Shown here: positions 7,791 to 47,565 of the stretch, piece after piece
Layout of the letters: every line of letters begins with the position of its first letter
How positions within the stretch are numbered: the stretch's first letter is position 1
Source: Parcubacteria bacterium C7867-008
GTDB lineage: Bacteria > Patescibacteriota > Minisyncoccia > Phycocordibacterales > Phycocordibacteraceae
Reading direction: 5' to 3'
Length of the DNA stretch: 64,000 nt
Assembly: GCA_001189215.1 (NCBI GenBank)
Contig: LFCR01000004.1
Coordinates: forward strand, 95,391 to 159,390
Notes under the pieces: generated by a model
Seen by the model: the letters and a program-made list of their open reading frames with translations, nothing else
Databases searched by the model: none
What the model was told of the DNA's origin: nothing
Program-made: the position numbers and the translations under genes

Positions 7791-7845
7791 TAAAAGAAAA
7801 CAGCCTCACTGCGTTCGCACGATAGTTGGTGCGAGGCAGTGAGGC
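7791..7845 (-). terminator. intrinsic terminator for the minus-strand PEP-CTERM gene
   Basis: GCCTCACTGCGTTCGCAC..GTGCGAGGCAGTGAGGC long hairpin; T-run on the minus strand (TAAAAGAAAA on plus). Confidence 0.5.
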
Positions 7846-7870
7846 CATTTTGGCGTGTCATGGTTGTAGG

Positions 7871-8641
7871 TTAGGCGTAGGCGCGACGCCGGCGACGAAT
7901 CGAGGCGCCGGCCAGGCCGAAGCCCAGGATCATCATCGCCCAGGTAGCCGGTTCGGGCACGCCGGGAAGTTCCGGAGGCGTGATGATGATCGGCGGATCC
8001 ACGTCGGTCTGCAGTCGCCTCAGGATGCTCACGTTGTCGATGCCGAGACCGTCGCCCAGGAAGCCGGATTCGGGCAGGAAGACGTCAGGGTTGCTGACGA
8101 ACGTGGCCCGAAGGTTGATGCGACTGATCACGTCGTAGTCCGTAGCGATGAAGGCCACCGTCCGATAGCTCCGGTAGAGGAGGTCGTTCAGGCGACCGTC
8201 GAGGATGATCACGCCGTGGTTGTCGATGACCTGGAAGTCCAGCTCGATCGGGAAGAGGTCCGGCCGGCTGTTGATGTTCTGGAAGACGTCGACGGTCAGG
8301 TTGTTGAAGTAGGTGCCGTCGGCCAACTCCAGAGTGGTGAAGCCGGTTGCGAAACCATCCCCACCGATCAGAAGCGGAGCCCAGCTTTTGTTGCCGGGGA
8401 CCAAAATGCTGCTGATGCCGCTGGCCAGGCCAGTGTAGGAAGCCTTCACACCCGACGAGCTGAGATAGGTCTTGGTCGCGGTGAAGGTCGGCTGGCTCGA
8501 GAAGTCAGCCCTCGTGAGAGACTCGAGCGACGTTCCGTAGAGAGCCGTCACACCGGCATACGCCGGAGCGGAAGTGACCAGAGCGAGTGCGCCGGCCAAT
8601 CCCAACAGGTAGTGAAGAGAATTCTTCATTCTTAACCCCAT
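7871..8641 (-). CDS. PEP-CTERM sorting-signal protein (secreted), GC-rich
   Basis: Signal peptide; C-terminal VPEPATWAMMILGFGLAGASIRRRRR (PEP motif, TM helix, Arg cluster). Region visibly GC-rich. Confidence 0.75.
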   Translation of the reverse strand: MGLRMKNSLHYLLGLAGALALVTSAPAYAGVTALYGTSLESLTRADFSSQPTFTATKTYLSSSGVKASYTGLASGISSILVPGNKSWAPLLIGGDGFATGFTTLELADGTYFNNLTVDVFQNINSRPDLFPIELDFQVIDNHGVIILDGRLNDLLYRSYRTVAFIATDYDVISRINLRATFVSNPDVFLPESGFLGDGLGIDNVSILRRLQTDVDPPIIITPPELPGVPEPATWAMMILGFGLAGASIRRRRRAYA

Positions 8642-8697
8642 CTTGGTTTGAGACTCGGCGCGGCCGAGTTAACGGCCACACCCTTTCGGTAGATCCT

Positions 8698-8751
8698 GAG
8701 GAAGTGAGCGTTTTAAGGGCCATATATGGTCCACAAAACGCTCACTTCCTT
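8698..8751. promoter_or_regulatory. long inverted repeat (16-bp arms, 20-nt loop containing a nested GGCCATATATGG palindrome)
   Basis: GAGGAAGTGAGCGTTTT...AAAACGCTCACTTCCTT read directly; lies in the divergent intergenic region between the two PEP-CTERM genes. Confidence 0.5.
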
Positions 8752-8903
8752 CTAAAACCATGAGTTTTAAAAGGACCCGTAACTGCCCGTAGCATACTAA
8801 AGTTGACATTTATGTCAAGGTATTGTGATCGCATCTTCATGAAGGAATATTTGCATAAATCAGATATTTAGGTTATAAAAATACAAGCAGTTCTTTATAT
8901 ATT

Positions 8904-8971
8904 CCTGATTTCCCGCACCCAAAAGCACTTCTGAGTCTTTTCAGGAACGTTGTTGGGTACGGGAAATCAGG
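8904..8971. promoter_or_regulatory. long inverted repeat (19-bp arms, 1 mismatch, 30-nt loop) in the leader of the second PEP-CTERM gene
   Basis: CCTGATTTCCCGCACCCAA...TTGGGTACGGGAAATCAGG. Confidence 0.5.
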
Positions 8972-9004
8972 ACATTTGTCGTTTCTGATCGTGCTCAAGG
9001 GGAC

Positions 9005-9787
9005 TTGAATATGCGTTTTGCGACCATCTTCGCGGCTGCGGCCGTTCTCTCGCTCTCGGCGGGCGCCGCTTTCGCGGACAGCCTGAATGACTTCTCGGCT
9101 CCGTTGACGCTCAGCGCCACTCCGGGGCCGGGCGTCTGGTCCGTCGACCGGTTTCCGCCGGCGACCTTTCAGTCGCAGGTCGCGTACGGCGGCCACGCCA
9201 ACACGCTCGAAATCGGCACCGTCGCGGCCGACTACCACGGCGGCACCTTCACCGACACACAGGGCAGGGCGACGAAGCTCGAGTCTGGGACCACGTTCGT
9301 GAGCGCGCAGATCTACATCGATCCGGGGTACCTCGACACCCGGTCCGATGCGCGTCTCGCGGAACTCTGGGGCGTCGGCACCGACGGCCTCGACATCACT
9401 GCCTACCCCCTTCTCGGGGTGGCGCGGGTGAGCGATCACCTCGAATACAAGGCTTGGAACACTCTCGGTGGCTTCTTCAGCCTCGGGACCATCGCTGCGT
9501 CCGACATCGGCACGTGGCAGACCATCAGCTACAAGCTGGACGGCGCGAACATCCTCTACGGCGCAGGGTCCTTCACCGGCATGACCGGGGCTCTGGGCAC
9601 CACGAGCTTCGACAGCGCCATCGTGCAGGCCATCAATACCGGCGGCAATCGCACGCACCACTTCGACAACCTGTTCACCAGCACCGGCGCGGTTCCCGAA
9701 CCGGCGACCTGGGCGATGATGATCCTGGGCTTCGGCGGCGTAGGCCTCACGGTCCGCCGGCGCCGCGGCGTCATGGCGGTGGCCTAG
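9005..9787 (+). CDS. PEP-CTERM sorting-signal protein (secreted), GC-rich
   Basis: Signal peptide MRFATIFAAAAVLSLSAGAAFA; C-terminal AVPEPATWAMMILGFGGVGLTVRRRRG, identical PEP-TM core to the gene at 7871-8641. Confidence 0.75.
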   Translation: MNMRFATIFAAAAVLSLSAGAAFADSLNDFSAPLTLSATPGPGVWSVDRFPPATFQSQVAYGGHANTLEIGTVAADYHGGTFTDTQGRATKLESGTTFVSAQIYIDPGYLDTRSDARLAELWGVGTDGLDITAYPLLGVARVSDHLEYKAWNTLGGFFSLGTIAASDIGTWQTISYKLDGANILYGAGSFTGMTGALGTTSFDSAIVQAINTGGNRTHHFDNLFTSTGAVPEPATWAMMILGFGGVGLTVRRRRGVMAVA

Positions 9788-9833
9788 CCACCCCGAACGA
9801 CAAGATCGACCTCAAGGTCGACAACCAACACTT

Positions 9834-9863
9834 GGGCCCGCTTTGTTGCGGGCCCATTCTTTT
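9834..9863 (+). terminator. intrinsic terminator
   Basis: GGGCCCGCTTTGTTGCGGGCCC followed by ATTCTTTT. Confidence 0.6.
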
Positions 9864-9875
9864 ATATTGCTGTAT

Positions 9876-9903
9876 TTGACATTTAATATATTTTGTGTAT
9901 ATT
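9876..9903 (+). promoter_or_regulatory. sigma70-like promoter (TTGACA-16-TATATT)
   Basis: TTGACA at 9876-9881 and TATATT at 9898-9903. It overlaps the ATG given by the ORF track, so the real start of the downstream gene is probably the GTG at 9932. Confidence 0.4.
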
Positions 9904-9931
9904 GTGTGAGGTAAATGGGGAGTATGAACAC

Positions 9932-10285
9932 GTGGAGAGAGATTACCTGAGGGTAGTTGGAACAGCGCCGGCACATCTGCCGGACTACAACTACGAAGAT
10001 CGAATTGAAGACCTGCGGGGACTTCTATGGGCTGCCTGCAAGCGCGGGCAACAGCATCTGATCGATGACATCGCCGTGCGTGCGCATCTTGCGCCCAGCA
10101 CTGTCGAGGCTTTCGTGTTCGGTCAGACAAAAAGACCGCAAGATCGCACGGTCTTCGAGATCGCGAAAGCCATCGGCTTTCGGATGGCGCTCATCCCCTT
10201 ATCGGTCCCGAAGCTTCGGGAAGAATTGGATCGCGGGAACCTTCCTGATGATCTGCCGAGAAGGAAGACACCCTTCAAGTCGTAG
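9932..10285 (+). CDS. HTH (XRE/Cro-like) DNA-binding protein, GC-rich
   Basis: IAVRAHLAPSTVEAFVFGQTKRPQDRTVFEIAKAIGF looks like helix-turn-helix. ORF track starts at ATG 9893, but GTG 9932 is preceded by GGGGAG at a 9-nt spacing. Confidence 0.45.
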   Translation: MERDYLRVVGTAPAHLPDYNYEDRIEDLRGLLWAACKRGQQHLIDDIAVRAHLAPSTVEAFVFGQTKRPQDRTVFEIAKAIGFRMALIPLSVPKLREELDRGNLPDDLPRRKTPFKS

Positions 10286-10306: not shown

Positions 10307-10340
10307 GGCCGGCGGGGCAACCCGTCGGCCATTTTCTATT
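10307..10340 (+). terminator. intrinsic terminator
   Basis: GGCCGGCGGGGCAACCCGTCGGCC plus ATTTTCTATT. Confidence 0.55.
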
Positions 10341-14081: not shown

Positions 14082-16424
14082 ATGGCGGACTCTGAACTAT
14101 TGATGAACATACGTGAACGATTGGCGCGCGGCGAAGACGAAACGAAGATCCGTGAGTCTCTAAAAGGCAAAAAGTGGAGCGAACCAGATGTTAATGGGGC
14201 AATTGCCGTAGCGAAGCTTCGTATGAAAGCAGGAGGGCGTTTCTCTGCAGTATCGGAAGTTCGCAGCACAAGAGCAGGTGGTAACGGCCTTGTTTTCAAC
14301 ATAGTAATGGTAGTGATATTGCTGGTAAGTGCACCGGTAGCCTACGGTGTGTATACCGGGTACATTCCGCCCGTACCCCTTCCAAATTCAGTGAACGAGA
14401 TAGCATTTGAAAGCCAGAACGCTAGCACTACTGATTCGCTATTTGATACTCCGTTTGATATTACGCAGCTCATACCAGTTGGAAAGGGTCCCAGACAGCT
14501 TGCCAACAATGACCCGACTCCTGCACCTGTTGCGACTAAACCCATTGGTTCATCGGCACCCAATCCTACGCCAGTTACGGTAACAAGTACTCCAGAACCT
14601 GCATCTACTCCTACTGCTTCAGAAGATCCTGCTCCAACTATTACGTTCGGAGTAAATGCAACAAGTGCCGTATCAGGAGATGTTGTTACCTTCACCTGGG
14701 ACGCCCAGAACGCCACGGTTTGTAACGGATCAGGATTCAATACCGGCTCGCGTGTAAGCGGTAGTGTCAACAAACGAGTAAGCGCTTCTTCCGTATTCAG
14801 GATCAGCTGTACCAACGCCACCCGCAGTGCAAAAGCAGAGGTGTCTATAAGAGTTTCTCCTAAAGTTCCCAAACCTCCCACTCCTGCACCTACTCCAACA
14901 CCGACTCCTACTCCTACACCAAGCCCCACACCTTCACCAACTCCAAGTCCCACCCCAACACCAACTCCTACACCTGTTCCAGTACCTTCGCCAACACCAA
15001 CAGGTACCTATAGTGTTTATTCAGGGTGCGAATCACCTTCAACAACCTTTGCACGCACCATCTACTTTGATCCCGTAAACGGTAACGACACCACCGGAAC
15101 CGGTGCAAGCAGTCTTCCATTTAAAACACTACAAGGAACTATAAATCTCAAAAAGATACTTCCAAATGATCACTTAGTACTGATGCCTGGTACCCATCCA
15201 GGACTTCTAACAAGTGCACTCCACCAACCAGCTCTCGCAGCAACATCAAAATGGGTGTGGCTTGATTTCCAGCCGGGTGCCGTTATGGACGGTGGCATCA
15301 ATCTAACTGATATGAAGCGTTGGCTTATCACTAAGCCTGAGATGACAAGCACCACCAAGCAAACAATTCTTATATTCACTGCCCGTGGTTCTAACATAGT
15401 TGTTGCAGATGGATTCTTTTACACTGAAAAAGGTTCTCCAACAGGATGGGATGTGGCTAAGTGGGGTAAAGCAAATAGCGGCATAACTACAGACACTACC
15501 ACCTGCGTATCTATACTCCGTAATCGCTTCAAGAACATGCTTGGCGGTATTACCGTAAATACACGTACGGCGTCTCCTGACGCTTCAAAAAACAGTATTA
15601 AAGCTATTATCAGTCAGAACATTATTCAAAATATCTCTGCCGATGGCATACGTCCTCTAGGTTCGGACTTTATCGTGTCGCACAACACTGTCCTAGACCA
15701 ATACCTTGATCGTGATGTTGATCCAAACCACGATGACGCCCTCCAGATGTATGCGCTCGGTGGTATCCAGTATGAAAACATCATTATTGATCACAACTGG
15801 ATGCAAGAGACGACTGATCCAAGTCGAAAGTACATTAGTGGTATGCAGGGCATCTCATCCTTTGATGGGGTAATCAAGAATATGCAAATAACAAACAATG
15901 TTGTTATCACCTCTGTATGGCAGGCAATTGCGTGGTACGGCATTCAAGACAGCGTTATTGACCACAACACGGTCGTGAATTACACCAACAACGGAAGACC
16001 GTCCTGGATTATGACCCACGACGGGAAGGATGGATCGCATGTGGTGAATGTAGCTCTCACCAATAATGCAGCAGCAGGTGTGTATGGTTCCGTGGGGGTC
16101 ACCACAGAATCAAATAACATCACCGTTCCAAACCCAGCAGCGGTATACACCACCTTTAATCCTGCAGGTAACAGTTATAATTTCACACCAAAACCAGGAA
16201 GCATTCTTGATGGAAAGGGCGCTGGTGTGGGGGGAGGAACTCGACCCCTCTCTCTTGAAACTTCTAGACGTCCTGCCTACGCAGTAGCATCACCAGCAGA
16301 CGTTTCTAAAGCACCCGCACAGAGCAAACTCGTAGCTTCTGTATACAATGGCGCTTCGTGGTTGGGGGATGCTTGGCATACCTTCTGGTCTTGGCTCGTA
16401 GGTTTCTTTGCTACAATTACATAA
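14082..16424 (+). CDS. large surface protein: N-terminal conserved domain, TM, Pro/Thr-repeat linker, right-handed beta-helix-like domain
   Basis: [17 protein letters not shown] low-complexity linker; NN..I...W/IDHN repeats typical of a parallel beta-helix. Paralog of the next gene. Confidence 0.65.
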
Positions 16425-16448: not shown

Positions 16449-18536
16449 ATGTCGGACGACGAACTTTTTAAAGCAATAGCGCAAAAGCTATCTGCTGGAA
16501 TACCGGAAGATGAGATACACAAATCATTTGATTCTCGCTGGGCTCCACAAGATATTAATGGGGCAATTGCTGTTTGGAAACTTCGCAATAAGTCTTTCAC
16601 ACTAACTAAACAAATTCCTCAAACCGCATACCACAAACCTTGGGAGGGCAACTCCTTCTTTCAGTTCTTTGTTATCGCCATACTTCTGGTCTCAGCACCA
16701 GGCGCGTATGGTCTAGTTACCGGCTTCCTTCTACCAACCGTACAGAATGATCCAATTAAAGCGGATTCGGTTAAAGAGTCCTATGAGTTATTGCGCGATG
16801 TTCCTTCACTAATTCCCGTAGCGCCCTTGGGAACCATTCTTCCTACAAAAAATACCCTTGCACCGATTGCTCAAGTTCCTACAAATGAAGTTCTGGCCAC
16901 TCCAACAACACCTGTTGCTACTCCTTCCAATATCACCCCCGCACCGACGGTTTCATTTAGCGTAAACACAAAGAGTGTTACGACTGGTTCACGTGTCACC
17001 CTTGAATGGAGTTCGGCAACGGCAAAGTCTTGTGTCGGTGCCAACTTTGATACCGGAGGCGTTGCAACTGGTTCATTGCGCAAGACACTATCAGTTACCA
17101 CTACCTACAGCATCACTTGCACCAATGCGGGCGGCACAACGACACGAAATGTTACCGTCTCTGCAACCAATAAGCAGGGTACCCTCATTCCAAATCCCGC
17201 TCCCGTTCCAACACCAACACCCGAGCCAGATCCCACACCAACTCCGACCCCTACTCCTACACCTACGCCCGTACCTACTCCTACACCAACCCCTGCGCCT
17301 ACTCCAACACCGACCCCTGCACCGACTCCTACACCAACCCCTGCGCCTACTCCGACTCCAGGTTCAACAGTTGTCGTACACAGCTATGTAGAAGCTATTG
17401 CTGCACTTAAAGCCGTTCAAGGCAAAGGAAATATCACGGTCCAATTTGCACCTGGAAACTACGGTGACGTAACATTCGGTGGAACCTATGAAAGTGGGTT
17501 TGCATATAACAAAGGGTTTGATTTCCCAACACCCGTAACTATCACCTCACAAAGCAATTCAAGCAGAGCGGTGTTCAGTAGAATACTTGTTAGCTACAGC
17601 AAAGGAATAATTATTAGTAATGTGGACGTTAGTCGCGATAGCTATGTTTCTCAGATTGTATATGTATCTAATTCTGCAAATGTCACCCTTGCTGGTTTAA
17701 AGATTACGGGCTCGCCAGATCTGGGCTCTACTGGTATTAGTACTCGCAACAATACCGACATAACAATCCGTAATAGTGAAGTTACCAGAGTCGGTAACGG
17801 TATTGGTTCATACCAAGATCCTGGACCGGTCTCGATCCTTTATAACCACGTGCACAACGTCGCAACCGATGCTATTGATGTGTACTACCAGCGTGGTATC
17901 GCAACCATAAAGGGAAATTACGCGCATGATTTCACTGTACAAGCTGGTTCGCACCCAGACTGTTTCCAAACATCATCAGGAGGAAGCAACACTAAACTGT
18001 ACGCAAATGAGAATCTTTGTGTTCGAGGCTCCGCTACCGGAGTACCGCAAGGTGTCTTTATAGGAAGTGAGAAAACAGGCACTGTTGAAATGAACGACAA
18101 CATGGTCGTGTGCGGTCTGTATAATGCAATCGCCGTATCAGAAGCGGGAGGCGGTACCATATCTGGCAACGAAGTTATCAACTGTCCTGATTATGGTGGT
18201 TGGATCAGATACCAAAATAGTGACAATCTCACCATAAGTAATAACGTATCGCCCCAATACGTTGGTGTTGGAACAAATACCAATACAGTATTTAGCAACA
18301 ACAGTACTACATCCCCAGGTGTCTCTAATTCTTCTGGCGCAGCAGATCGTATTGCTGCATGGCGCGCACGTCATCCGCAGGTTCCAGGGGATTCCTATAC
18401 TCCTACATACAGCCTTCTGGAAAGAGTTATGCGTTCATTTGCTGAAGCAACAGGAGCCTTCATGCTTGCACTAGAGAGTGTGGGGAAGTCTGCACTAGCA
18501 TCCGTATTTGAATCCCTTCGTTTCTCTGCTTGGTAG
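16449..18536 (+). CDS. paralogous surface protein with PT-repeat linker and beta-helix-like domain
   Basis: N-terminus ([23 protein letters not shown]...[12 protein letters not shown]) parallels [23 protein letters not shown]...[12 protein letters not shown] of the upstream gene; [12 protein letters not shown] linker. Confidence 0.65.
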
Positions 18537-38144: not shown

Positions 38145-38203
38145 GTGACATTCACCTCGTTGCTTTTATGGGTCTGGACAGAACCCTAACACAATTGCAT
38201 AAA

Positions 38204-38231: not shown

Positions 38232-38246
38232 TATTTTTGATACACT

Positions 38247-38675: not shown

Positions 38676-38702
38676 GTTCCAACATCGTCCCACACAGCCA
38701 AC
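38675..38702 (+). repeat. cassette boundary repeat R3 (3' half diverged)
   Basis: GGTTCCAACATCGTCCCACACAGCCAAC. Confidence 0.7.
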
Positions 38703-38718
38703 AATATTTCCGCATATA

Positions 38719-38747
38719 TTGACTTATTTACATATTAGTGCTAATGT
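38719..38747 (+). promoter_or_regulatory. sigma70-like promoter (TTGACT-17-TAATGT) inside a non-coding cassette
   Basis: Read directly; followed about 80 nt later by the hairpin GGCCCCGCAGACTTTATGTCATGCGGGGC plus TTTTGATT, with no credible ORF between them. Confidence 0.35.
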
Positions 38748-38856
38748 ATTTCCAGACGAGAAAATTCTCACTTTATAGCGTATTTGCCTTTCCCATTACC
38801 AAATGGCAAGGCTTGGCCCCGCAGACTTTATGTCATGCGGGGCTTTTGATTAAAAA

Positions 38857-38884
38857 AGTTCCAACATCGTCCCAGACTGCCAGC
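38857..38884 (+). repeat. cassette boundary repeat R4
   Basis: AGTTCCAACATCGTCCCAGACTGCCAGC (1 mismatch). Confidence 0.85.
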
Positions 38885-38950
38885 AAAAACGAAACCCCGC
38901 GACCAAATGGTGCGGGGTTCCCGTTAAGGCATTTCGGGTAAGCCTACGCT

Positions 38951-39448
38951 TCAGAGGTGACTGAACTTCGGGTAGTGGCTGTCGAGTTCCTGGCGATCCT
39001 CCTGTTGCTCGTCAGTCAGGTTGCCGCGGCCGAACCGAGAGGTAGGTAGGTTGAACTTTTTCACGATCGCTTCACAGATCTCGAAGTCGAGCCTGGTGTA
39101 GCACTGTTGAGGGCCGAGATCGAAGTCTTCCGGGATAACACCGAGATACTTCAGGGCGGTCGCCATGTCGTAGCCGTAGTGCGTCGTCCACTCGAAGTAG
39201 CTGGAGAGGCCGTTGGAGACGACAGCCCAGGCAGCGATACGCTGGTACTGGAGATCCATGCCGCATAGGACGGCGGCAACGAAGCGATCATTCCAGTAGC
39301 ACTGGTGCTGGTGCTCGTTGTGGCCCGTCCAGACGCGCTGAGCACTGAGGCGGGTGAGCGGGTTCTCAAGGTGAGCGCCCGGCTCCTTCACGCACTTCGC
39401 GACATGCGCAAAGGCTTCTTTATCGGTCAGTTCCACAGCCTGGGTCAT
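38951..39448 (-). CDS. cassette ORF, GC-rich hypothetical protein
   Basis: 165-aa ORF; minus-strand terminator AACCCCGCACCATTTGGTCGCGGGGTTTCGTTTTT precedes R4. Confidence 0.45.
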   Translation of the reverse strand: MTQAVELTDKEAFAHVAKCVKEPGAHLENPLTRLSAQRVWTGHNEHQHQCYWNDRFVAAVLCGMDLQYQRIAAWAVVSNGLSSYFEWTTHYGYDMATALKYLGVIPEDFDLGPQQCYTRLDFEICEAIVKKFNLPTSRFGRGNLTDEQQEDRQELDSHYPKFSHL

Positions 39449-39520
39449 TTGCAGTCCCGCGTCTGAGCTCTCTGAGCTGGTTGAAATGTACGCTAGACCA
39501 AGTAGGTCCTTGCTGATACC

Positions 39521-39548
39521 TTTATATCATATTTACATATTTAGTCAA
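39521..39548 (-). promoter_or_regulatory. sigma70-like promoter (TTGACT-16-TATAAA) for cassette ORF 38951-39448
   Basis: Reverse complement of AGTCAA 39543-39548 and TTTATA 39521-39526. Confidence 0.4.
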
Positions 39549-39557
39549 GCATAAAAA

Positions 39558-39585
39558 GGTTCCAACATCGTCCCAGACTGCCAGC
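39558..39585 (+). repeat. cassette boundary repeat R5
   Basis: Exact consensus. Confidence 0.9.
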
Positions 39586-39591
39586 AATTGA

Positions 39592-39858
39592 TCAAAGTCT
39601 CGAAACCGCGCAATACCCATCACCATAGACATTCACAATAATGCTTCCACTCTTACTTCTGCAGCTCTCCCTCGCTGCATTAAGTTCAGTCCCTGACATA
39701 TTCCTAGAGAAAACAGGAGTTTTGTATACTACGTACCAGTCTGTCCCATACCCGATCACATCACCAAACTGAAAAGACGTTATTCGGTAAGGAGAAAGTA
39801 GGTATAGTCCGGCAAGAACGCCCAAGCCAATAAATATATAGCGAGCGTACTTTTTCAT
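39592..39858 (-). CDS. cassette ORF, small secreted/membrane protein (AT-rich)
   Basis: 88 aa, N-terminal hydrophobic helix. Confidence 0.4.
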   Translation of the reverse strand: MKKYARYIFIGLGVLAGLYLLSPYRITSFQFGDVIGYGTDWYVVYKTPVFSRNMSGTELNAARESCRSKSGSIIVNVYGDGYCAVSRL

Positions 39859-39882
39859 GCATTAAGTCTAGCACCCATAAAG

Positions 39883-39910
39883 GTTCCAACATCGTCCCAG
39901 ACTGCCAGCA
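39883..39910 (+). repeat. cassette boundary repeat R6
   Basis: Exact consensus. Confidence 0.9.
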
Positions 39911-39972
39911 AACAGAAAACCCGCTCAGCGAAGCTAAACGAGCTTCTGCTGGAACGGGTCCAGGGCGATTGA

Positions 39973-40170
39973 TCAGTTCGGCACGAACTTCACGTCGGCG
40001 GAGACTTGACCGATAGGCGGCGTCCAACCGAGCTGCGGGTGGAAGTGGGCAGTCTGGATACCCACGAGGAAGGCCAGAGCCGCGCCAGCGACCATGATGC
40101 AGGTCAGAAAGCGGCGTTCGAAGGTGTTAGGCGAAGGTGCGATGCGCGTGCGCGCCATGTGCGTTCTCAA
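39973..40170 (-). CDS. cassette ORF, small GC-rich membrane protein
   Basis: 65 aa with a TM helix. Confidence 0.3.
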   Translation of the reverse strand: MRTHMARTRIAPSPNTFERRFLTCIMVAGAALAFLVGIQTAHFHPQLGWTPPIGQVSADVKFVPN

Positions 40171-40224
40171 TGCTGTGCGACCCTGCGGATCGGCTCATTC
40201 CTGCACGATGCTGGAACTGATAGG

Positions 40225-40253
40225 TTAATACAACTATTTAAATATTCTGTCAA
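40225..40253 (-). promoter_or_regulatory. sigma70-like promoter (TTGACA-17-TATTAA) for cassette ORF 39973-40170
   Basis: Reverse complement of TGTCAA 40248-40253 and TTAATA 40225-40230. Confidence 0.4.
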
Positions 40254-40264
40254 TTAAGGACAAA

Positions 40265-40292
40265 GGTTCCAACATCGTCCCAGACTGCCAGC
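40265..40292 (+). repeat. cassette boundary repeat R7
   Basis: Exact consensus. Confidence 0.9.
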
Positions 40293-40374
40293 AGCTAACT
40301 ATCAATATATAAAAGAAACCGCCCCACTACTGAACGCTGTGAGGCGTCTCTTGTAGTGAGGCGGTGTGCCCCGA

Positions 40375-40833
40375 TCAAACCGAGATCGGAATGGTGATGT
40401 CGAGGATCTCGAGCGCGAACTCCCAATCCTTGGTTTCAGCCACATCCGAGCGCGTACGGGCCCGTCGGTGATCAGCCATCCCAGGCCAGTCGAGCATGCG
40501 TCCCATCTGGGTGACCCAGTCGTACCGATCACCGTGGTGGTGGCCGTCGGTGCAGATCACGCAGGGAATGCCCTTTGCGTTTGCCAACGACATGACCGCC
40601 ACACCGCAGGGCTCGAGGATATTGTTGTCGACGCCATTAGAGTTGCCGCTGCGACCCTGCGGGAAGAAAAGGTCGGTGATCACGTGCGTGATGCCGTACT
40701 GCTCGCTCTTGAGCAGGGCCTGTTCGGCGAAGTCCAGGTTCTTCACATGGATGAACTCGATGCCGGCACGCTGCAGGATGTTTATCGCATCGTCGGCATG
40801 ACGTGCAGTGTCTTCAACGAGCAGAATCTTCAT
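40375..40833 (-). CDS. cassette ORF, stand-alone receiver(REC)-like domain protein, GC-rich
   Basis: MKILLVEDTARHADDAINILQ...ITHVITDLFFP CheY-like layout. Confidence 0.45.
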   Translation of the reverse strand: MKILLVEDTARHADDAINILQRAGIEFIHVKNLDFAEQALLKSEQYGITHVITDLFFPQGRSGNSNGVDNNILEPCGVAVMSLANAKGIPCVICTDGHHHGDRYDWVTQMGRMLDWPGMADHRRARTRSDVAETKDWEFALEILDITIPISV

Positions 40834-40871
40834 TGCTGGCCTCCTTGGCCTTGTTTCTGAATCCTAGGCTT

Positions 40872-40900
40872 ATATTACTACAGTATGTGTACTTTGTCAA
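40872..40900 (-). promoter_or_regulatory. sigma70-like promoter (TTGACA-17-TAATAT) for cassette ORF 40375-40833
   Basis: Reverse complement of TGTCAA 40895-40900 and ATATTA 40872-40877. Confidence 0.4.
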
Positions 40901-40907
40901 GTAAAAC

Positions 40908-40935
40908 GGTTCCAACATCGTCCCAGACGGCCAGC
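40908..40935 (+). repeat. cassette boundary repeat R8
   Basis: GGTTCCAACATCGTCCCAGACGGCCAGC (1 mismatch). Confidence 0.85.
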
Positions 40936-40953
40936 TATTATTTATAAAAGTTA

Positions 40954-41610
40954 TTGTGGCATAATGTTCATATGCCTGAAGGAATTAAAGATTGGAGAAG
41001 ACTTTTTGCCGAAGGAAGGAATTCAGACCCTGCACGTAAGGATGTTCCCGTTTCGCAAGAACCAGTGCTTGAGTCACGGACCAAAACAGAAGGTCATAGA
41101 GTGGAAAAAATTCCTCTCGAACCAACAGTGCTTTCACCGGTTCAGCTTACAAATACCAAATTCCTTGATAATCCTTCCAAGCGAAGACTTGTTGCTGGTG
41201 ACTTTAAAAGACTCATTCTTGATAAAGCACGTCCGGTAGTGCTACAGGATTCATTAACTTTAGAAAGATTTGATCTTTCTAAAGGAGACAAAGATAGAAA
41301 TATTGTTGCAGATGTTCCTGAAGAAGCTTTCTTTGCTGATGAAACGGAATTATATGCCCGTGTTGCACAACTCATATCTCTTGAAGAGAGCGGCTATTCA
41401 GGTATCCTCGCAACTGGTAGTTCGATGAATGTTTTTTATCTAAAAGGCAAGAAAACCGTAGTCATGGTGCATACTGCAATTTCCAACGCTACTCGCCAAC
41501 GAGTCTGGGTATCAGACGCTGATTCATTCGATGCGCCTGGACATCGTCCAGAAACTCGAGTCTTTTTAAAGAATATTGAATCAAAGGCACCAATTCCTGA
41601 TGAGACTTAG
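40954..41610 (+). CDS. cassette ORF, hypothetical protein (AT-rich)
   Basis: 218-aa ORF; an alternative start is the Met at 40972. Confidence 0.4.
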   Translation: MWHNVHMPEGIKDWRRLFAEGRNSDPARKDVPVSQEPVLESRTKTEGHRVEKIPLEPTVLSPVQLTNTKFLDNPSKRRLVAGDFKRLILDKARPVVLQDSLTLERFDLSKGDKDRNIVADVPEEAFFADETELYARVAQLISLEESGYSGILATGSSMNVFYLKGKKTVVMVHTAISNATRQRVWVSDADSFDAPGHRPETRVFLKNIESKAPIPDET

Positions 41611-41625
41611 AGATATTTCTAAAAA

Positions 41626-41653
41626 GGTTCCAACGTCGTCCCAAACTGCCAGC
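41626..41653 (+). repeat. cassette boundary repeat R9
   Basis: GGTTCCAACGTCGTCCCAAACTGCCAGC (2 mismatches). Confidence 0.85.
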
Positions 41654-41723
41654 AATAAAAGAAAGATCGCCTACAGGAAGCGACCTTCCGTAAGCGATTA
41701 TGGTTTCACTTTGTCTGTGAATC

Positions 41724-42059
41724 TCACAGCTCCTCGAACTTTGTGCTCACCCATTCGGGAGTTACCTCAATTGTTGCCCGTTCAAGAACTTTTGCAATGT
41801 CGGGCGCGGGCATGACCGACGTCGTACCACACTTTTCGCAGTCTCGGCGCTGCGCAAGAGACTGCACACACTCTTTAACCATGTCCACATGTGGCGTAGG
41901 TGGATGTCTTTCGAAAGATGAGTATCCCCAAGCGGTATTCTCGTGGCTGCAGCAAGGACACACGAGAACGGCATCGAAACCAAGGGCTCTATTTCCAAGG
42001 GGCCCGCGAGGCACGAACCTGTGCCCCTGGACCTTTGGTTCCCAGCTCTTTAAATACAT
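41724..42059 (-). CDS. cassette ORF, Cys-rich zinc-ribbon-like protein, GC-rich
   Basis: CPCCSHENTAWG ... CEKCGTT. Confidence 0.4.
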   Translation of the reverse strand: MYLKSWEPKVQGHRFVPRGPLGNRALGFDAVLVCPCCSHENTAWGYSSFERHPPTPHVDMVKECVQSLAQRRDCEKCGTTSVMPAPDIAKVLERATIEVTPEWVSTKFEEL

Positions 42060-42112
42060 GACGTGTTCCCTTCAATGGAGGTCTGGACAGAACCTACCAT
42101 AGATTGCATAAA

Positions 42113-42140
42113 GGTTCCAACGTCGTCCCAGCTGCCACCC
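42113..42140 (+). repeat. cassette boundary repeat R10 (3' end diverged)
   Basis: GGTTCCAACGTCGTCCCAGCTGCCACCC, preceded by GGTCTGGACAGAACCTACCATAGATTGCATAAA. Confidence 0.75.
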
Positions 42141-42158
42141 TTTTGATATAATTAACTC

Positions 42159-42548
42159 ATGCACAAAGACATTCGGACATATAATTCTGCGCTTACAAAA
42201 GAGGATAAGAAGATCTGTAACACCTTAGCAAACGAGATCGATGCAAGTCTGCCAGAAGCTGAGAGCAAAATATGGCACAGGAGCCCTGTGTGGTTCTTGG
42301 AAGGCAATCCCGTGGTTGGGTATGCAAAACGTAAAGATAACGTTCAACTCCTTTTCTGGAGTGGTCAATCATTTGAGGAAAAGTGCTTAGCACCCGAGGG
42401 AAGCTTCAAGGCGGCACAAGCTCGGTACATCAAAGCTTCCGAAATAGAGCTGAAGGATCTAAAACGTTGGTTAAAGAAAGCAAAATTGATCCAGTGGGAT
42501 TATAAGAATATTGTCAAAAGAAAAGGGAAGCTGGTCCGCATTACATAA
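42159..42548 (+). CDS. cassette ORF, hypothetical (DUF1801/YdhG-like)
   Basis: 129-aa ORF starting 19 nt after R10. Confidence 0.4.
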   Translation: MHKDIRTYNSALTKEDKKICNTLANEIDASLPEAESKIWHRSPVWFLEGNPVVGYAKRKDNVQLLFWSGQSFEEKCLAPEGSFKAAQARYIKASEIELKDLKRWLKKAKLIQWDYKNIVKRKGKLVRIT

Positions 42549-42551
42549 AAC

Positions 42552-42575
42552 TTCCAACAATTGTCATGGCGCTAT
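42552..42575 (+). repeat. degenerate boundary repeat (CTTCCAACAATTGTCATGGCGC)
   Basis: Shares TTCCAACA..GTC with the consensus; overlaps a TATAAT -10 element just before the next ORF. Confidence 0.3.
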
Positions 42576-42585
42576 AATTAAACGT

Positions 42586-42897
42586 ATGAAGCTTGAAACT
42601 TTCCGCGCAACACCATTGATAAAGCAGAAGTTTGTATTGGTACGCGTTTCTCAGTCTAACAAAGAACATTTGCTGCTTTGGGGTAATCCAGATATTGAGT
42701 GGCACATGCAGATCATTGAAGAGATAACTAATGCAGGTCATGAGATAAAAGATATCCTTGGCGGCGGATGGCTACTATCAAAGCCAGAAGATAGAGTAGT
42801 TTACATCTGGGGGAAGAGCGATCGTCTTGGGTTGGCACCGATTGAATTGGTTAGGGAAGTGCTTGGAGACAGCGTTGTTGAGAGTGAACCAGAATAA
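42586..42897 (+). CDS. hypothetical protein
   Basis: Start at the internal Met (MKLETFRATPL) of ORF 42511-42897. Confidence 0.35.
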   Translation: MKLETFRATPLIKQKFVLVRVSQSNKEHLLLWGNPDIEWHMQIIEEITNAGHEIKDILGGGWLLSKPEDRVVYIWGKSDRLGLAPIELVREVLGDSVVESEPE

Positions 42898-42898
42898 G

Positions 42899-42926
42899 GG
42901 TTTCAGCATCATGCCTGCAGAACACT
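42899..42926 (+). repeat. degenerate boundary repeat (GGTTTCAGCATCATGCCTGCAGAACAC)
   Basis: About 19/28 identity to the consensus. Confidence 0.3.
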
Positions 42927-42950
42927 ATTTATTCTTAGGTATATTATTTT

Positions 42951-43238
42951 ATGAATCCTAAGCTCTCAAAGACAGTTTCACTTCTCTTGATGCTCACACC
43001 AATAGCACTCTTAGCTACATATTTTGGTGTATCAGTGACAACAGCAATTCCAAATATTCCGTTGAAAGTTATTGGCATAGGGTATTTTGCTTTAAGCGTT
43101 CTGTTTTCGATAATAAACTACTTCCTTAATGGTTTGCGCACCTTGCTCATACACTGTGCCGTTATCGTGGCAGGTACCATAGGAGTAGTAGTGTTCTACG
43201 TGCTACTACTTTTCTGTATGTTTCCTCTTCCGCTCTAA
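42951..43238 (+). CDS. small membrane protein
   Basis: Three predicted TM helices. Confidence 0.35.
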   Translation: MNPKLSKTVSLLLMLTPIALLATYFGVSVTTAIPNIPLKVIGIGYFALSVLFSIINYFLNGLRTLLIHCAVIVAGTIGVVVFYVLLLFCMFPLPL

Positions 43239-43320
43239 TTAAAAGCTTGTGACTGCACCCAGCCGTAATATATTTAATATTCTTGATTAAATAAGCGCAG
43301 ACAGGTGCTACACTTTCTTC

Positions 43321-43602
43321 ATGAAAGCCTTAAGTATAGTCTCCTTGTTGATTAGTGTGGGTTTCTTTGCCTTTGCTTGGTACATAGCTCTAAACTCAAC
43401 AAACGGCGGATACACATGGGCGTATATAACAGCAGTGTTCATATGCCTTATTGGCGCAGGATTCTTAGGAACTGGAATCGCCTTGTATAGAACTAGGTTT
43501 ATGGCAAATTCAATGATTCCTCCACTTATATTTGTAGGAGTTCTCATATTTCTTGCTGGGTTTGTCTTTTTCTATATAAAACTTGCCGTTCCAGGCTTAT
43601 AA
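43321..43602 (+). CDS. small membrane protein
   Basis: Three predicted TM helices. Confidence 0.35.
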   Translation: MKALSIVSLLISVGFFAFAWYIALNSTNGGYTWAYITAVFICLIGAGFLGTGIALYRTRFMANSMIPPLIFVGVLIFLAGFVFFYIKLAVPGL

Positions 43603-44122
43603 AACAGATATGATTGCACGAATTCTCTTAGGTATCTGCTCCGTAATAAGTGTTCTGCTTTTTGTGATTATTGGATACGGCACTTCAAGTGAATGTTTAG
43701 TTGGTGACAATCCATTAGCTCAAATCCTTTTACTTCCACCACTCCTCATTCTTTGGTTTGGTTTATATTCGTCATTTAAAACCCCCACACTGCGACGTGC
43801 TGTATTCATTCTTCTTTTTGCATTATTCATCGCGTTCGTAACACTATATGGTTCAGGTACTTCAAGATGCAGTCCTAACGATAGTTCAAAGAAGGGCACT
43901 CTGCGAACTCTGCAAAAGGTGCTTTCAGAGTATTACGCTGACAACCACTCGTACCCTGAAACCCTTTCGGACTTCTCAGATTACATTGGTCCACGCACAG
44001 AAGCATCTGATATCAGGTACAGTCATACAAAAGACTCATACCAGATGTGCACTACCATTAAATACAAGTACTTCTACCACATACCACTAAATGCAGGGGA
44101 GGAGTATTGTCTAGGTTCGTAG
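43583..44122 (+). CDS. membrane-anchored hypothetical protein
   Basis: Two TM helices, then a soluble C-terminal domain. Confidence 0.4.
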   Translation: MPFQAYKTDMIARILLGICSVISVLLFVIIGYGTSSECLVGDNPLAQILLLPPLLILWFGLYSSFKTPTLRRAVFILLFALFIAFVTLYGSGTSRCSPNDSSKKGTLRTLQKVLSEYYADNHSYPETLSDFSDYIGPRTEASDIRYSHTKDSYQMCTTIKYKYFYHIPLNAGEEYCLGS

Positions 44123-44138
44123 ATGATACAGTAGAGGT

Positions 44139-44584: not shown

Positions 44585-45643
44585 TTGAGGTATGGTATCG
44601 CTATGGAATCCATAGCAAGTAAGAACGTATTTGTTGGACTATCCGGAGGAGTAGACTCCGCGGTTTCGGCTGCACTCTTACAAAACGCAGGAGCGCATGT
44701 CACAGGAGTGTTTATTAAAGGATGGTATCCCCCTGGTATGCCGTGTACTTGGGCAGAAGATCGGCGTGATGCGATGCGTGTCGCTGCACACCTAGGCGTT
44801 CCATTTCATACGCTTGATGCGTCCACAGAATACAAACAAGGAGTCATAGACTATCTCATCTCTGAGTACGCAGCGGGGAGAACACCAAACCCGGACATAA
44901 TGTGTAACAGGGAAGTTAAGTTTGGAGCGTTCTACCGCTTTGCGAAAGAACACAACGCAGACTTCATTGCCACCGGACACTACGCACAAACAAAAGATGG
45001 TCAACTTTTTCGAGGTATAGATCCATCAAAGGATCAGAGCTATTTCCTATGGGCAGTGCCAAAAGAAGCATTGAGTCAAACACTCTTTCCGGTTGGAGGC
45101 CTGCCGAAATCAGAAGTACGTGCTCTTGCAGAGAAATTCAATCTTCCTGTTGCGCAGAAGAAGGATAGTCAGGGAATTTGTTTCCTAGGATCTATTTCCG
45201 TTGATGAGTTCCTGCGCAATGAGCTGAAAACAGAAGAAGGTGATGTGCTTGATGAGACGGGACAAAAGATTGGCACACATGATGGCGCAGTTCTCCACAC
45301 ACTTGGTGAACGCATTACACCTCACGACGCGGAACAGGGTCCTTGGTATGTGGTCCGTAAAGATCTTGCAATAAATGTACTGGTGGTGAGACACGGATCT
45401 GCGGCATTTGAAACACCACCAGCAACGCTCACTCTACGAGACACTAACTGGTTTACTCCAGATGCCTTAGAGGGAACACTTGAAGCACAGTATCGGTATC
45501 ACGGTTCAGTTACTGCAGGTACGTACGATAAGAAGACCTCAACATTTACTCCAAGCGTACCGCTTCCAGAGCCCATTGCAGCTGGGCAGTCTCTTGTGTT
45601 GTATGTAGGGGATAGCTGTATTGGAGGTGGTATTATCGAGTAA
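44585..45643 (+). CDS. mnmA: tRNA-specific 2-thiouridylase MnmA
   Basis: PP-loop SGGVDSAV, catalytic Cys region, C-terminal barrel. Confidence 0.9.
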   Translation: MRYGIAMESIASKNVFVGLSGGVDSAVSAALLQNAGAHVTGVFIKGWYPPGMPCTWAEDRRDAMRVAAHLGVPFHTLDASTEYKQGVIDYLISEYAAGRTPNPDIMCNREVKFGAFYRFAKEHNADFIATGHYAQTKDGQLFRGIDPSKDQSYFLWAVPKEALSQTLFPVGGLPKSEVRALAEKFNLPVAQKKDSQGICFLGSISVDEFLRNELKTEEGDVLDETGQKIGTHDGAVLHTLGERITPHDAEQGPWYVVRKDLAINVLVVRHGSAAFETPPATLTLRDTNWFTPDALEGTLEAQYRYHGSVTAGTYDKKTSTFTPSVPLPEPIAAGQSLVLYVGDSCIGGGIIE

Positions 45644-46474
45644 ATGCCAGACATTGTTAAAGCAGACGGAACCGTTGAAACGTTCGTCCCAGAGAAGCTA
45701 GAAGAATCACTACGCCGAGCGGGTGCTGGCGCAGGTGCTGCCGAGAAGATACGTCGCACCATTGAAGCTAGTATTGCTCCAGGTTCTGAAAGTAATGATA
45801 TTTATCGTCGTGCGTTCCAGATGCTTCGTCGTGAAGGGCATGCAGCGGCGGCTCGTTATAGTCTTCGTCGCGCGCTCTTTGAATTTGGTCCCTCAGGGCA
45901 TCCCTTCGAAGATTTTGTTTCAGAACTATTTAAGAAGGAGGGGTGGAAAATTGAAACTCGACGATTGATCGCTGGTAAGTGTGTAACCCATGAAGTGGAT
46001 GTGTATGCGACACGTGGTAACGAAACACTTGCTGCTGAACTTAAATACCATAATGATCCTGGGTACAAAACTGATGTGAAAGTAGCCCTGTACGTAAAGG
46101 CACGCTTCGATGATATTTGGCAGTGTGATCCTGCGGTAAATAAGTCATGCCCAATTGATCGAGGGTATCTCATCACCAACACCAAGTTCACGTCCCAAGC
46201 AGTAGATTACGCGACCTGTTCCGGACTCAATCTCCTTGGATGGAGCTACCCCCATCACGGCAATCTCTATGACCGCATTATTGCTAGCGGTCTATACCCA
46301 ATCACTGCACTCACCACCGTGCGGAAGGCAGAGAAGCGTCTTCTCATTGATAGGAATATCTCCACTACTGATTTACTTCGTCAGCACCGTGAACTCCTAC
46401 GAGAAATCGGCGTAACTCCTGAACGTGTTGGCTCCATAGTGGCCGAAATAGAGACGTTAAACGATACCCTCTAG
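45644..46474 (+). CDS. ATP-cone domain fused to a restriction-endonuclease-like (Mrr-type) domain
   Basis: N-terminal VKADGTVETFVPEKLEESLRRAG is ATP-cone-like; HEVDVYATRGNE...ELKYHNDPGYKTDVKVALYVKARFDD is PD-(D/E)XK Mrr-like. Confidence 0.5.
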   Translation: MPDIVKADGTVETFVPEKLEESLRRAGAGAGAAEKIRRTIEASIAPGSESNDIYRRAFQMLRREGHAAAARYSLRRALFEFGPSGHPFEDFVSELFKKEGWKIETRRLIAGKCVTHEVDVYATRGNETLAAELKYHNDPGYKTDVKVALYVKARFDDIWQCDPAVNKSCPIDRGYLITNTKFTSQAVDYATCSGLNLLGWSYPHHGNLYDRIIASGLYPITALTTVRKAEKRLLIDRNISTTDLLRQHRELLREIGVTPERVGSIVAEIETLNDTL

Positions 46475-46495
46475 AACAGGATATACTGGGGGTAT

Positions 46496-47296
46496 ATGGC
46501 AGAATTTCGTAAGCAATATAATCCAAACCGAAGTTCAGACTGGAACTATGGCGGACCCAAATGGCGTCTCTCACGTTCAAAGATTGAGTTGTTTACCGAG
46601 TGTCCTCGTTGCTTCTATCTAGACAATAAACTGGGTACTGCACGTCCTCGTGGTCCTGCGTTTACCCTTAATATTGCGGTGGATGCACTTTTGAAGAAAG
46701 AGTTTGATGTGTACCGAATAGACGGCACCAAGCACCCGCTGATGGAGGCGTATGATATCAACGCTGTTCCGTTTAAGCACAAGAACATGAATACTTGGCG
46801 CGAGAACTTTGAGGGCGTTGAATTCAAACACAAAGAAACTGGCTTCACGATTTCAGGTGCAGTGGACGATATATGGGTTAATCCAGAAGGAGAACTTATT
46901 GTTGTGGACTACAAAGCAACTTCGAAAGAAGGAACAATCACTACACTCGCCGATTCTTCTTGGAACGAGCAGTATCAACGCCAAATGGGTGTCTATCAAT
47001 GGCTCCTTCGTAACAATGGATTCACGGTGTCTCCAACCGGATACTTTGTATATGCAAACGCAGGGAGTGACAAAGCAGCGTTTGATGGACAGCTTGAGTT
47101 TGAAGTAACGGTAGTGCCGTGTGAAGGAGATACCGCATGGATCGATGATGTTCTTCCAAAGATAAAAGATGCACTTGATAGCGAAGCACTACCGCCGGTG
47201 GGTGATGCCTGCGAGTTCTGCGTATACCGAGAAGCATCAGGGAAGAAACTTCAGGAGCTCTATAAGAAGAGTCTGCAGGTAAAGAAAGTGGGCTAA
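46496..47296 (+). CDS. PD-(D/E)XK nuclease family protein with Cys4 cluster (Cas4/RecB-nuclease-like)
   Basis: GAVDDIW ... VVDYKATS D-(D/E)XK motif; N-terminal CPRC plus C-terminal C...CEFC. Confidence 0.5.
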   Translation: MAEFRKQYNPNRSSDWNYGGPKWRLSRSKIELFTECPRCFYLDNKLGTARPRGPAFTLNIAVDALLKKEFDVYRIDGTKHPLMEAYDINAVPFKHKNMNTWRENFEGVEFKHKETGFTISGAVDDIWVNPEGELIVVDYKATSKEGTITTLADSSWNEQYQRQMGVYQWLLRNNGFTVSPTGYFVYANAGSDKAAFDGQLEFEVTVVPCEGDTAWIDDVLPKIKDALDSEALPPVGDACEFCVYREASGKKLQELYKKSLQVKKVG

Positions 47297-47346
47297 ACAG
47301 AAACCCCGCTTGCGCGGGGCTTTGTGACTGCAACCATTCTGGTCAG

Positions 47347-47565
47347 TCAGTCGTCCGTTGGCCTCAGAATGCCGACTGCAGTGTGGCGATCATGCGACAC
47401 ACCATCGATCACCACATGGGTGTAATCGGGACGAGCGGTGAGTGCGATTAGCGCCTGTTCAGCGTCTTGGACGTGAGCTGTGTGCGTGACACCCTCCGTC
47501 TGCGCCCACTCTTGCATCGCGTTACCGGCTTGTTTGGCCCTGGACTCAACAATTAGGACTTTCAT
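47347..47565 (-). CDS. small hypothetical protein, GC-rich
   Basis: 72-aa ORF in a GC-rich islet, flanked by a terminator at 47297-47325. Confidence 0.3.
   Translation of the reverse strand: MKVLIVESRAKQAGNAMQEWAQTEGVTHTAHVQDAEQALIALTARPDYTHVVIDGVSHDRHTAVGILRPTDD

Follow-up and report, generated by a model that had tools for sequence, protein, structure and literature searches.

GC-rich accessory genes at core-gene junctions of the Parcubacteria bacterium C7867-008 chromosome

Parcubacteria bacterium C7867-008 is represented by an 808-kb genome bin with 48% guanine plus cytosine (GC) from Hanford groundwater (PMC4508563). Here, we analyzed 64,000 nucleotides of its contig LFCR01000004.1 (the window), which carries a number of short GC-rich blocks (islets) scattered through its backbone. 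The islets are of an ordinary kind, namely accessory genes with an atypical composition that lie at hot spots. As to their origin, we favor, with a confidence somewhat above even, the explanation that they occupy long-lived, replaceable hot-spot loci and that the occupants of these loci were drawn from a pool of genes with a higher GC content than C7867-008. According to this explanation, the GC-rich blocks, with the exception of one RNA gene, would be single-gene accessory units at core-gene junctions, each equipped with its own sigma-70-type promoter and intrinsic terminator. The hot spots are located beside lexA, between mreB and holB, between an XRE-family gene and tRNA-Asn and in a cassette array 3' of yceG. 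In related Parcubacteria the same loci are empty or carry either unrelated genes or very diverged positional homologues. The predicted products are mostly envelope or secreted proteins (two PEPxxWA-CTERM proteins, a β-barrel, a lipoprotein, small secreted proteins), to which small helix-turn-helix (HTH) or receiver-like regulators are added.

Composition and anatomy of the islets

The GC content of the entire window is 0.484. When we counted 200-bp segments with a GC content of at least 0.62, we observed 1591 of them compared with 2.3 in shuffled sequences, and all of them were located within positions 7793-8620, 8951-9885, 18567-19010, 31879-32531, 39139-39470, 39893-40224, and 40350-40666. 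The GC content at third codon positions (GC3) varied between 0.59 and 0.87 for the nine non-array islet genes and between 0.54 and 0.77 for six open reading frames (ORFs) of array cassettes, versus 0.419 ± 0.045 (maximum 0.50, n = 32) for the backbone genes. Because the excess concerns GC3, the deviation resides at synonymous sites and is no by-product of the amino acid content. A preliminary description of this DNA, which was made from the letters alone, had reported the GC-rich blocks, and our calculations confirmed them: the compositional profile is far from uniform and the blocks are foreign at synonymous sites. Its account of their content (a secreted protein plus an XRE regulator, a lipoprotein, two secreted proteins, a non-coding structured element) also matched our annotation, which is given below.

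7801-7851, minus strand: intrinsic terminator of the lexA-adjacent PEP-CTERM gene (-34.2 kcal/mol, z -8.6)
7871-8641, minus strand: 256-aa secreted PEPxxWA-CTERM protein (GC 0.61, GC3 0.81; NF035944, 52.3 bits; PF07589)
8642-9004, no strand: AT-richer spacer with divergent promoters, separating the two PEP-CTERM genes (GC 0.43)
9005-9787, plus strand: 260-aa secreted PEPxxWA-CTERM protein (GC 0.67, GC3 0.87; NF035944, 49.4 bits)
9833-9856, no strand: bidirectional terminator hairpin (-21.5 kcal/mol, z -5.2)
9893-10285, plus strand: HTH-like protein of about 117-130 aa (GC3 0.61; candidate promoter TTGACA-16-TATATT at 9876-9903)
10307-10330, plus strand: terminator ending the islet at 7.8-10.3 kb (-23.8 kcal/mol, z -5.3)
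18637-18993, minus strand: gene of a 118-aa secreted protein (GC3 0.85) with terminator at 18575-18599
19117-19539, minus strand: XRE-family regulator gene (GC3 0.61; PF01381, 3.4e-15) with terminator at 19061-19112 (-41 kcal/mol) and promoter-like site at 19573-19545
20533-20856, minus strand: gene of a 107-aa lipoprotein (GC3 0.69) with terminator at 20476-20526 and a perfect TTGACA-16-TATAAT at 20923-20896
25522-25864, minus strand: gene of a structured non-coding RNA of about 340 nt between priA and def, with promoter at 25899-25871 and terminator at 25548-25528
31447-31722, minus strand: gene of a 91-aa secreted protein (GC3 0.59); bidirectional terminator at 31403-31429 shared with mreB
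31868-32557, minus strand: gene of a 229-aa β-barrel protein with signal peptide (GC3 0.74), terminator at 31820-31839 and promoter-like site at 32646-32618
37093-37464, minus strand: GC-rich gene just ahead of the first 28-mer
37524-42140, plus strand: array of ten 28-mers GGTTCCAACATCGTCCCAGACTGCCAGC between yceG and mnmA, found nowhere else in the window
37614-38144 (minus), 38951-39448 (minus), 40006-40257 (plus), 40375-40833 (minus), and 41724-42059 (minus): GC-rich cassette genes
47347-47565, minus strand: gene of a 72-aa receiver-like protein (GC3 0.60) with terminator at 47299-47322

The islet genes favor CTG/CTC, CGC/CGG, GGC, CCG, GCC/GCG, and GTC, and this codon signature is that of a genome with 60-67% GC, unlike the native high-expression bias. 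The ribosomal-protein genes of the window reach a GC3 of only 0.46-0.60, prefer CTT, CGT, GGT, and TCT, and avoid CTG, CGG, and GGG. We rejected the possibility that very high expression of native genes accounts for the islets, since the ribosomal genes favor T-ending four-fold codons and the islets C- or G-ending ones.

All 10 islet genes tested are followed by a hairpin plus U-tract with folding energies between -19 and -41 kcal/mol. The z-scores of these terminators ranged from -2.7 to -8.6 in nine cases and amounted to -1.1 for the hairpin at 31820-31839. With the AT-rich spacers (GC 0.17-0.44), these hairpins bear out the bounded architecture that the preliminary description had proposed for the blocks. 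Near-consensus sites of the TTGACA/TATAAT type were present 5' of several islet genes, including a promoter-like site at 8818-8791 for the gene at 7871-8641. For the HTH-like gene at 9893-10285, the sequence suggests that the true start codon is probably located downstream of 9903. Counted over the whole region, promoter-like matches (23 versus 23.2 in shuffled sequences) and terminator-like matches (27 versus 17.9 ± 5.2) did not show a clear excess. Several genes (promoter sites at 38247, 40954, 42159, and 25871-25876) appear to rely on TGnTATAAT-like promoters with an extended -10 element, and their leaders are very short or missing.

Both PEPxxWA-CTERM proteins scored above the NF035944 cutoff of 35 bits. 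The PF07589 score was 33 bits (cutoff 20.7 bits), and the PEP motif, the transmembrane helix and the basic cluster were all present. For the 118-aa, 107-aa, 91-aa, and 130-aa proteins and for most of the cassette proteins, Pfam and NCBIfam gave no match, and the 72-aa protein had sub-threshold Pfam matches only.

The AlphaFold2 model of the 229-aa protein (predicted local distance difference test score 89.9, predicted template modeling score 0.80) contains 14 strands. When we compared it with known structures using Foldseek, the porins KdgM, NanC, PcoB, and OmpG were retrieved with E-values of about 1e-7 and template modeling scores of up to 0.76 on the target. Judged from this model, which shows a closed antiparallel barrel, and from the signal peptide, the protein is predicted to be an outer-membrane-type β-barrel. 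A word-index search matched the 229-aa sequence to itself only, and an exhaustive search yielded a family of 39 cluster representatives. Three members of this β-barrel family match OMP_b-brl weakly.

Islet sites in related Parcubacteria

The backbone of the window includes genes for pyruvate kinase, MreB, MurA, a PriA-like helicase, LexA, and ribosomal proteins, and two window proteins are filed as AB203_00620 and AB203_00745 of C7867-008. A megablast search with 22-37 kb gave no match among phage genomes, and we therefore consider the window cellular chromosome. For comparison, we used 80 MreB-anchored loci from related Parcubacteria, the GC content of which varied between 32% and 63% (median 54%); the upper GC content of the clade was put at 63-66%. 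OD1 genomes co-occurring in the source sample have GC contents of 36-56% (PMC4508563). Collinearity with the window is retained in the sister genome C7867-007 (L003), whose aligned backbone blocks show 75-83% nucleotide identity, and its departures from this order fall exactly at the islet sites.

Between mreB and holB, about 20 relatives have a gap of 8-30 bp, and about 30 carry 200-5568 bp with small genes. These inserts consist mostly of mutually unrelated genes on the strand opposite to mreB, which encode secreted or membrane products, and their GC content is at times above and at times below that of the host. The β-barrel gene was detected at this junction in at least five genomes; its homologues (30-40% identity) lie in L012, L017, L086, and L087/L088, with a GC3 of 0.74-0.86 while the backbone GC3 spans 0.42-0.90. 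The β-barrel and PEP-CTERM genes match the host GC in high-GC relatives (L087, L213, L211) and stand out in low-GC hosts. Only Parcubacteria contexts were encountered for the β-barrel family. In C7867-007, the same place is occupied by a homologue of the 91-aa protein (55% identity, GC3 0.65).

Beside lexA, PEP-CTERM genes were found in the window and in RYN_391 (L085), L211, L212, and L213, which are five Parcubacteria genomes from different samples, and the arrangement is often the same divergent pair. The GC3 of these genes is 0.71-0.90, with backbone values of 0.52-0.82 in the relatives and 0.42 in the window. The lexA neighbor in L211 is a positional homologue of the 256-aa protein (27% identity over 206 aa). 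Full-length relatives of the 260-aa protein (38-46% identity) were located solely on contigs with 64-70% GC (three examined), which encode LysR, AraC, TetR, an HWE histidine kinase, Gcw_chp, and DsbA; judged from the sequences, this gene set appears to be of the alphaproteobacterial type. Named matches to its C-terminal domain came from Phenylobacterium and other Alphaproteobacteria, and the positional counterparts in Parcubacteria aligned with the protein over the C-terminal tail only. This pattern would fit an allele replacement by a xenologue at the lexA locus. A tblastn search of plasmids with the 260-aa protein retrieved nothing.

The XRE orthologue of C7867-007 shares 43 identical codons with the gene in the window, 45 codons differ synonymously and 24 non-synonymously, and its GC3 is 0.62 versus 0.61 here. 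For the backbone genes, the corresponding numbers were 174/154/10 (mreB) and 75/67/33 (def). The synonymous turnover of the XRE and 91-aa genes matches that of mreB and def, and thus both genes predate the split between C7867-007 and C7867-008. From the XRE gene to tRNA-Asn (19540-22700, about 3.2 kb), the window encodes a Cys-rich protein, the lipoprotein, a DUF305-like protein and others, and the same interval measures only about 0.4 kb in C7867-007. This segment, which adjoins a tRNA gene and lacks an integrase, is thus variable.

In the array that separates yceG from mnmA, the units are bounded by the 28-mer. Five of the 10 inter-repeat segments have a GC content of 0.515-0.56, as the preliminary description had indicated for half of the cassettes, and the rest lies at 0.40-0.48; cassette GC3 (0.27-0.77) falls on both sides of the backbone. 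C7867-007 carries an array at the same place with zero cassettes in common. The 28-mer is almost invariant, with 280 copies in at least 120 metagenome contigs (L090-L209) that form arrays or occur as single dispersed copies, and around it only A-rich flanks are conserved and no dyad symmetry was seen. From 124 loci we collected 187 cassette units of 154-3904 bp with GC contents of 0.32-0.63. The related contigs L148 and L152 differ by one 877-bp unit, the break points of which lie at 28-mers. This precise gain or loss of units indicates that the array is a real cassette system, and nothing links the non-array islets to it. ORF clustering around the 280 copies of the 28-mer revealed no recurrent recombinase, no recombinase domains were detected in the array and its flanking ORFs, and in the literature we found nothing relevant on the 28-mer sequence or on cassette arrays or integrons in the candidate phyla radiation (CPR). 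The 28-mer units may represent an undescribed cassette system of Parcubacteria. The segment following the last repeat (42113-44138) is AT-rich (GC 0.39-0.43), encodes a DUF1801 protein, a Janus/Ocnus-like protein and several small membrane proteins, and is absent from C7867-007; accessory DNA here departs below the backbone, too.

Since they are empty or differently filled in relatives, the islet sites are hot spots for accessory genes. An exception is the block at 25.5-25.9 kb. It had been described as a non-coding structured element, which our data support, and had been counted among the acquired islets, which they do not, since an RNA gene is conserved at this position. The transcript of about 340 nt folds with -138 kcal/mol (z -6.5), and 10 relatives have a priA-def gap of 250-390 bp at the same position. 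Common to these relatives are the terminator, a TGGTGATATAAT box and a long-range stem of 11 bp (GTGCCGCTGAC...GTCAGCGGCAC) that shows compensatory changes. The TGGTGATATAAT box recurs 5' of the RNA gene in relatives. On these sequence comparisons, the block is best described as a native, vertically inherited RNA gene, which is GC-rich because it is structured. Rfam 15 contains no family for this element (best E-value in the region 0.14), and the sole match in the window at the Rfam gathering score was tRNA-Asn.

Origin and age of the islets

If the islets are occupants of replaceable loci, the source pool would be the higher-GC members of the clade, and the PEP-CTERM genes would ultimately stem from Alphaproteobacteria. 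Non-array genes may have entered by DNA uptake and subsequent recombination in conserved flanking genes, a route that we infer because the Parcubacteria core includes ComEC, ComF, DprA, and type IV pili (PMC4508563). Entry into the array would involve recombination at the invariant 28-mer. The islets are not all of the same age: with a GC3 of about 0.6, the XRE and 91-aa genes are older than the split between the two sister genomes, and the PEP-CTERM, 118-aa, and β-barrel genes (GC3 0.74-0.87) may be either younger or kept GC-rich. Composition alone would have misdated islet genes as recent acquisitions. The preliminary description had proposed repeated acquisition from a high-GC donor. The foreign composition and the variable junctions are in line with acquisition, but a single donor and recent insertions are not supported by our data. 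In particular, a dozen fresh insertions is incompatible with the XRE and 91-aa genes that are shared with C7867-007 and with the PEP-CTERM genes at lexA and the β-barrel at mreB, which are positional in several genomes.

A less likely but serious alternative is that the islets are vertically inherited, clade-specific envelope genes, the synonymous GC of which is actively maintained while the backbone drifts. The synonymous GC might be upheld through GC-biased gene conversion, which would act at recombination-prone, diversifying loci, or through selection on properties of the mRNA or DNA. Positional conservation argues for such inheritance, as exemplified by the PEP-CTERM pair at lexA in five genomes and by the β-barrel at mreB|holB, and so do the occupant GC3 values of 0.7-0.9 across backbone values of 0.42-0.9 and the XRE orthologues, which retain a GC3 of 0.61 and 0.62 despite about 50% synonymous turnover. 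However, a GC3 excess of 0.3-0.45 seems to us large for such a force, the codon choice departs from native translational selection, and the 260-aa protein has its nearer relatives on alphaproteobacterial-type contigs (45%), whereas its Parcubacteria counterparts at the same position can be aligned with the tail only. The distribution of the genes is patchy, and the sister genome carries a different gene at mreB|holB.

Serial recent small insertions from one high-GC donor, for instance an alphaproteobacterium, would explain the high-GC codon signature, the alphaproteobacterial-type PEPxxWA-CTERM tail and the full-length relatives on alphaproteobacterial-type contigs. We nevertheless regard this scenario as quite improbable and largely refuted, since other Parcubacteria share several of the islets or carry them at conserved positions, the β-barrel family was confined to Parcubacteria contexts, identities did not exceed 46% and the GC3 of the islets is uneven (0.59-0.87). 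It is even less probable that the non-array islets are former 28-mer cassettes with decayed recombination sites, which the preliminary description had suggested. The anatomy is alike (one gene that has a promoter and a terminator of its own), the 28-mer does bound units that are gained and lost, and the array cassette protein encoded at 40375-40833 is distantly paralogous to the 72-aa protein at 47.3 kb (36% identity over 56 aa). However, when up to 12 mismatches were allowed, the 28-mer gave chance-level matches outside the array and none at the islet borders, so that its reported absence from the non-array blocks also applies to degenerate copies. Homologues of non-array islet genes were absent from the 187 cassettes of the 124 loci and from the cassettes of the 120 metagenome loci that we searched, and no 28-mers were seen flanking the lexA-adjacent or mreB|holB genes in L003-L089 and L210-L213. 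Since the 28-mer is nearly invariant over 280 copies, decay without a trace is unlikely. Finally, GC-rich fragments of other organisms might have been joined to a Parcubacteria scaffold during assembly or binning, as the source is a metagenome-assembled genome and the islet proteins are typical of Gram-negative bacteria. This is hardly credible: every islet returns to syntenic backbone on both sides, which excludes chimerism, and positional homologues occur on Parcubacteria contigs from independent studies and unrelated samples. Moreover, two further contigs, one from JGI (35 kb) and one from Logan (9 kb), match the NCBI scaffold with 100% identity across the islets they cover (the blocks at 25.5 kb and 31.4-32.6 kb), and most of the array is also contained in the JGI contig. 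The low rating that chimerism had received before was thus justified.

Several observations weigh against replaceable loci filled from a GC-richer pool, the explanation that we prefer. The best outside homologues are only 30-46% identical and no donor was found; assignment of a donor via codon usage did not discriminate, since high-GC Parcubacteria and proteobacterial contigs fit alike (r 0.85-0.91). The two-gene PEP-CTERM arrangement at lexA in five genomes is most simply explained by vertical descent, and in that case the persistently high GC3 would need a maintaining force and not re-import. The non-array islets showed neither an integrase nor flanking repeats nor target duplications. Homologous recombination across flanks of GC-divergent relatives that are about 70-80% identical would be inefficient. 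As to signatures of mobility, there were no recombinase domains in the array or its flanking ORFs and no repeat remnants, and only the segment at 19.5-22.7 kb is located beside tRNA-Asn.

Relation to known systems and the cell envelope

In the amelioration framework of Lawrence and Ochman, horizontally acquired genomic islets are recognized by their atypical composition. The islets described here resemble them in their atypical GC3 and codon choice, their patchy accessory distribution, their location at core-gene junctions and their graded GC3, which possibly reflects residence times. In contrast, they lack an integrase, flanking repeats and prophage or insertion sequence remnants, and several of them are positionally conserved across species yet strongly atypical. 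O-antigen (rfb) and capsule loci are replaceable polymorphic surface loci at a fixed chromosomal position. Here, the parallels are the fixed site, hyper-divergent or non-homologous alleles, surface products and persistently atypical GC; recombination in the flanks, which would be a further parallel, is presumed only. The islets differ from these loci in that they consist of one to three small protein genes and not of polysaccharide clusters, and their GC is high rather than low.

An integron attC site is a structured imperfect palindrome of 55-141 bp, and an integrase gene, intI, lies adjacent to the sites. The array, and the array only, resembles integrons and clusters of attC sites lacking integrases (CALINs) in its single-gene units bounded by direct repeats, their fast turnover between close relatives and their exact gain and loss. 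Unlike attC, the 28-mer is non-palindromic and nearly invariant across genera, the cassettes have their own promoters and terminators and occur in both orientations, and no integrase was found in the window or as a recurrent neighbor of the 280 copies of the 28-mer.

The two lexA-adjacent proteins share with the substrates of PEP-CTERM/exosortase systems (PMC1569441) a signal peptide, a C-terminal PEP motif, a transmembrane helix and an Arg cluster as well as a high diversity with little homology beyond the tail. They differ from the substrates described by Haft et al. 2006 (PMC1569441) in their host, which belongs to the CPR/Parcubacteria. Every PEP-CTERM-bearing bacterium found in that study had an outer membrane and an EpsH/exosortase homologue (PMC1569441). 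We saw no exosortase (EpsH/Xrt) in the window, which covers 64 of the 808 kb of the genome, or among the relatives' loci. The absence of PilQ has been noted, as is typical where an outer membrane is lacking, but the same paper also cites an outer membrane reported for OD1 (PMC4508563). Outer-membrane-type β-barrels and PEPxxWA-CTERM proteins normally imply an outer membrane and an exosortase, and their presence is unexpected for CPR bacteria.

It appears doubtful, and we put it below vertical inheritance, that PEPxxWA-CTERM proteins and β-barrels together form a conserved envelope toolkit of a Kaiserbacteria-like Parcubacteria clade that keeps a GC3 of 0.7-0.9 whatever the backbone. If this were the case, a locus-specific GC-maintaining process (e.g., biased gene conversion at hot spots) or continuous re-import from diderm high-GC partners or hosts would be needed, and the finding would hint at a diderm-like envelope in these CPR bacteria or at host-type outer-membrane proteins that are used epibiotically. 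In any case, PEP-CTERM and β-barrel genes at fixed loci, with a GC3 far above that of the host, bear on the cell envelope and host interaction of CPR bacteria. Two features deserve attention, namely the persistence of the compositional anomaly across genomes and the occurrence of Gram-negative-type surface proteins in a CPR lineage. Horizontal gene flow into reduced CPR genomes is poorly charted, and here it is concentrated in tiny single-gene units at few stable junctions, which mostly encode surface proteins.

A few observations concern the neighborhood of the islets. A perfect palindrome, TTGTGTGTGGATAAACACACAA, is located at 7734-7755 just 5' of lexA and is the sole such site in the window. 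Judged by its sequence, it is probably the LexA auto-operator of this lineage. A LexA-box-like palindrome was not found in the PEP-CTERM promoters but only 5' of lexA. The ORF at 76-1785 starts with a NUDIX domain and also encodes an anticodon-binding domain and a class I aminoacyl-tRNA synthetase core, of which just the C-terminal part is present; this is either an unusual fusion or a truncation. Two adjacent large paralogous proteins (14082-16424 and 16449-18536), for which Pfam gave no match, contain long Pro/Thr-rich tandem repeats (14853-14998 and 17184-17383), and these repeats produce GC-rich, strongly GC-skewed stretches within backbone genes.

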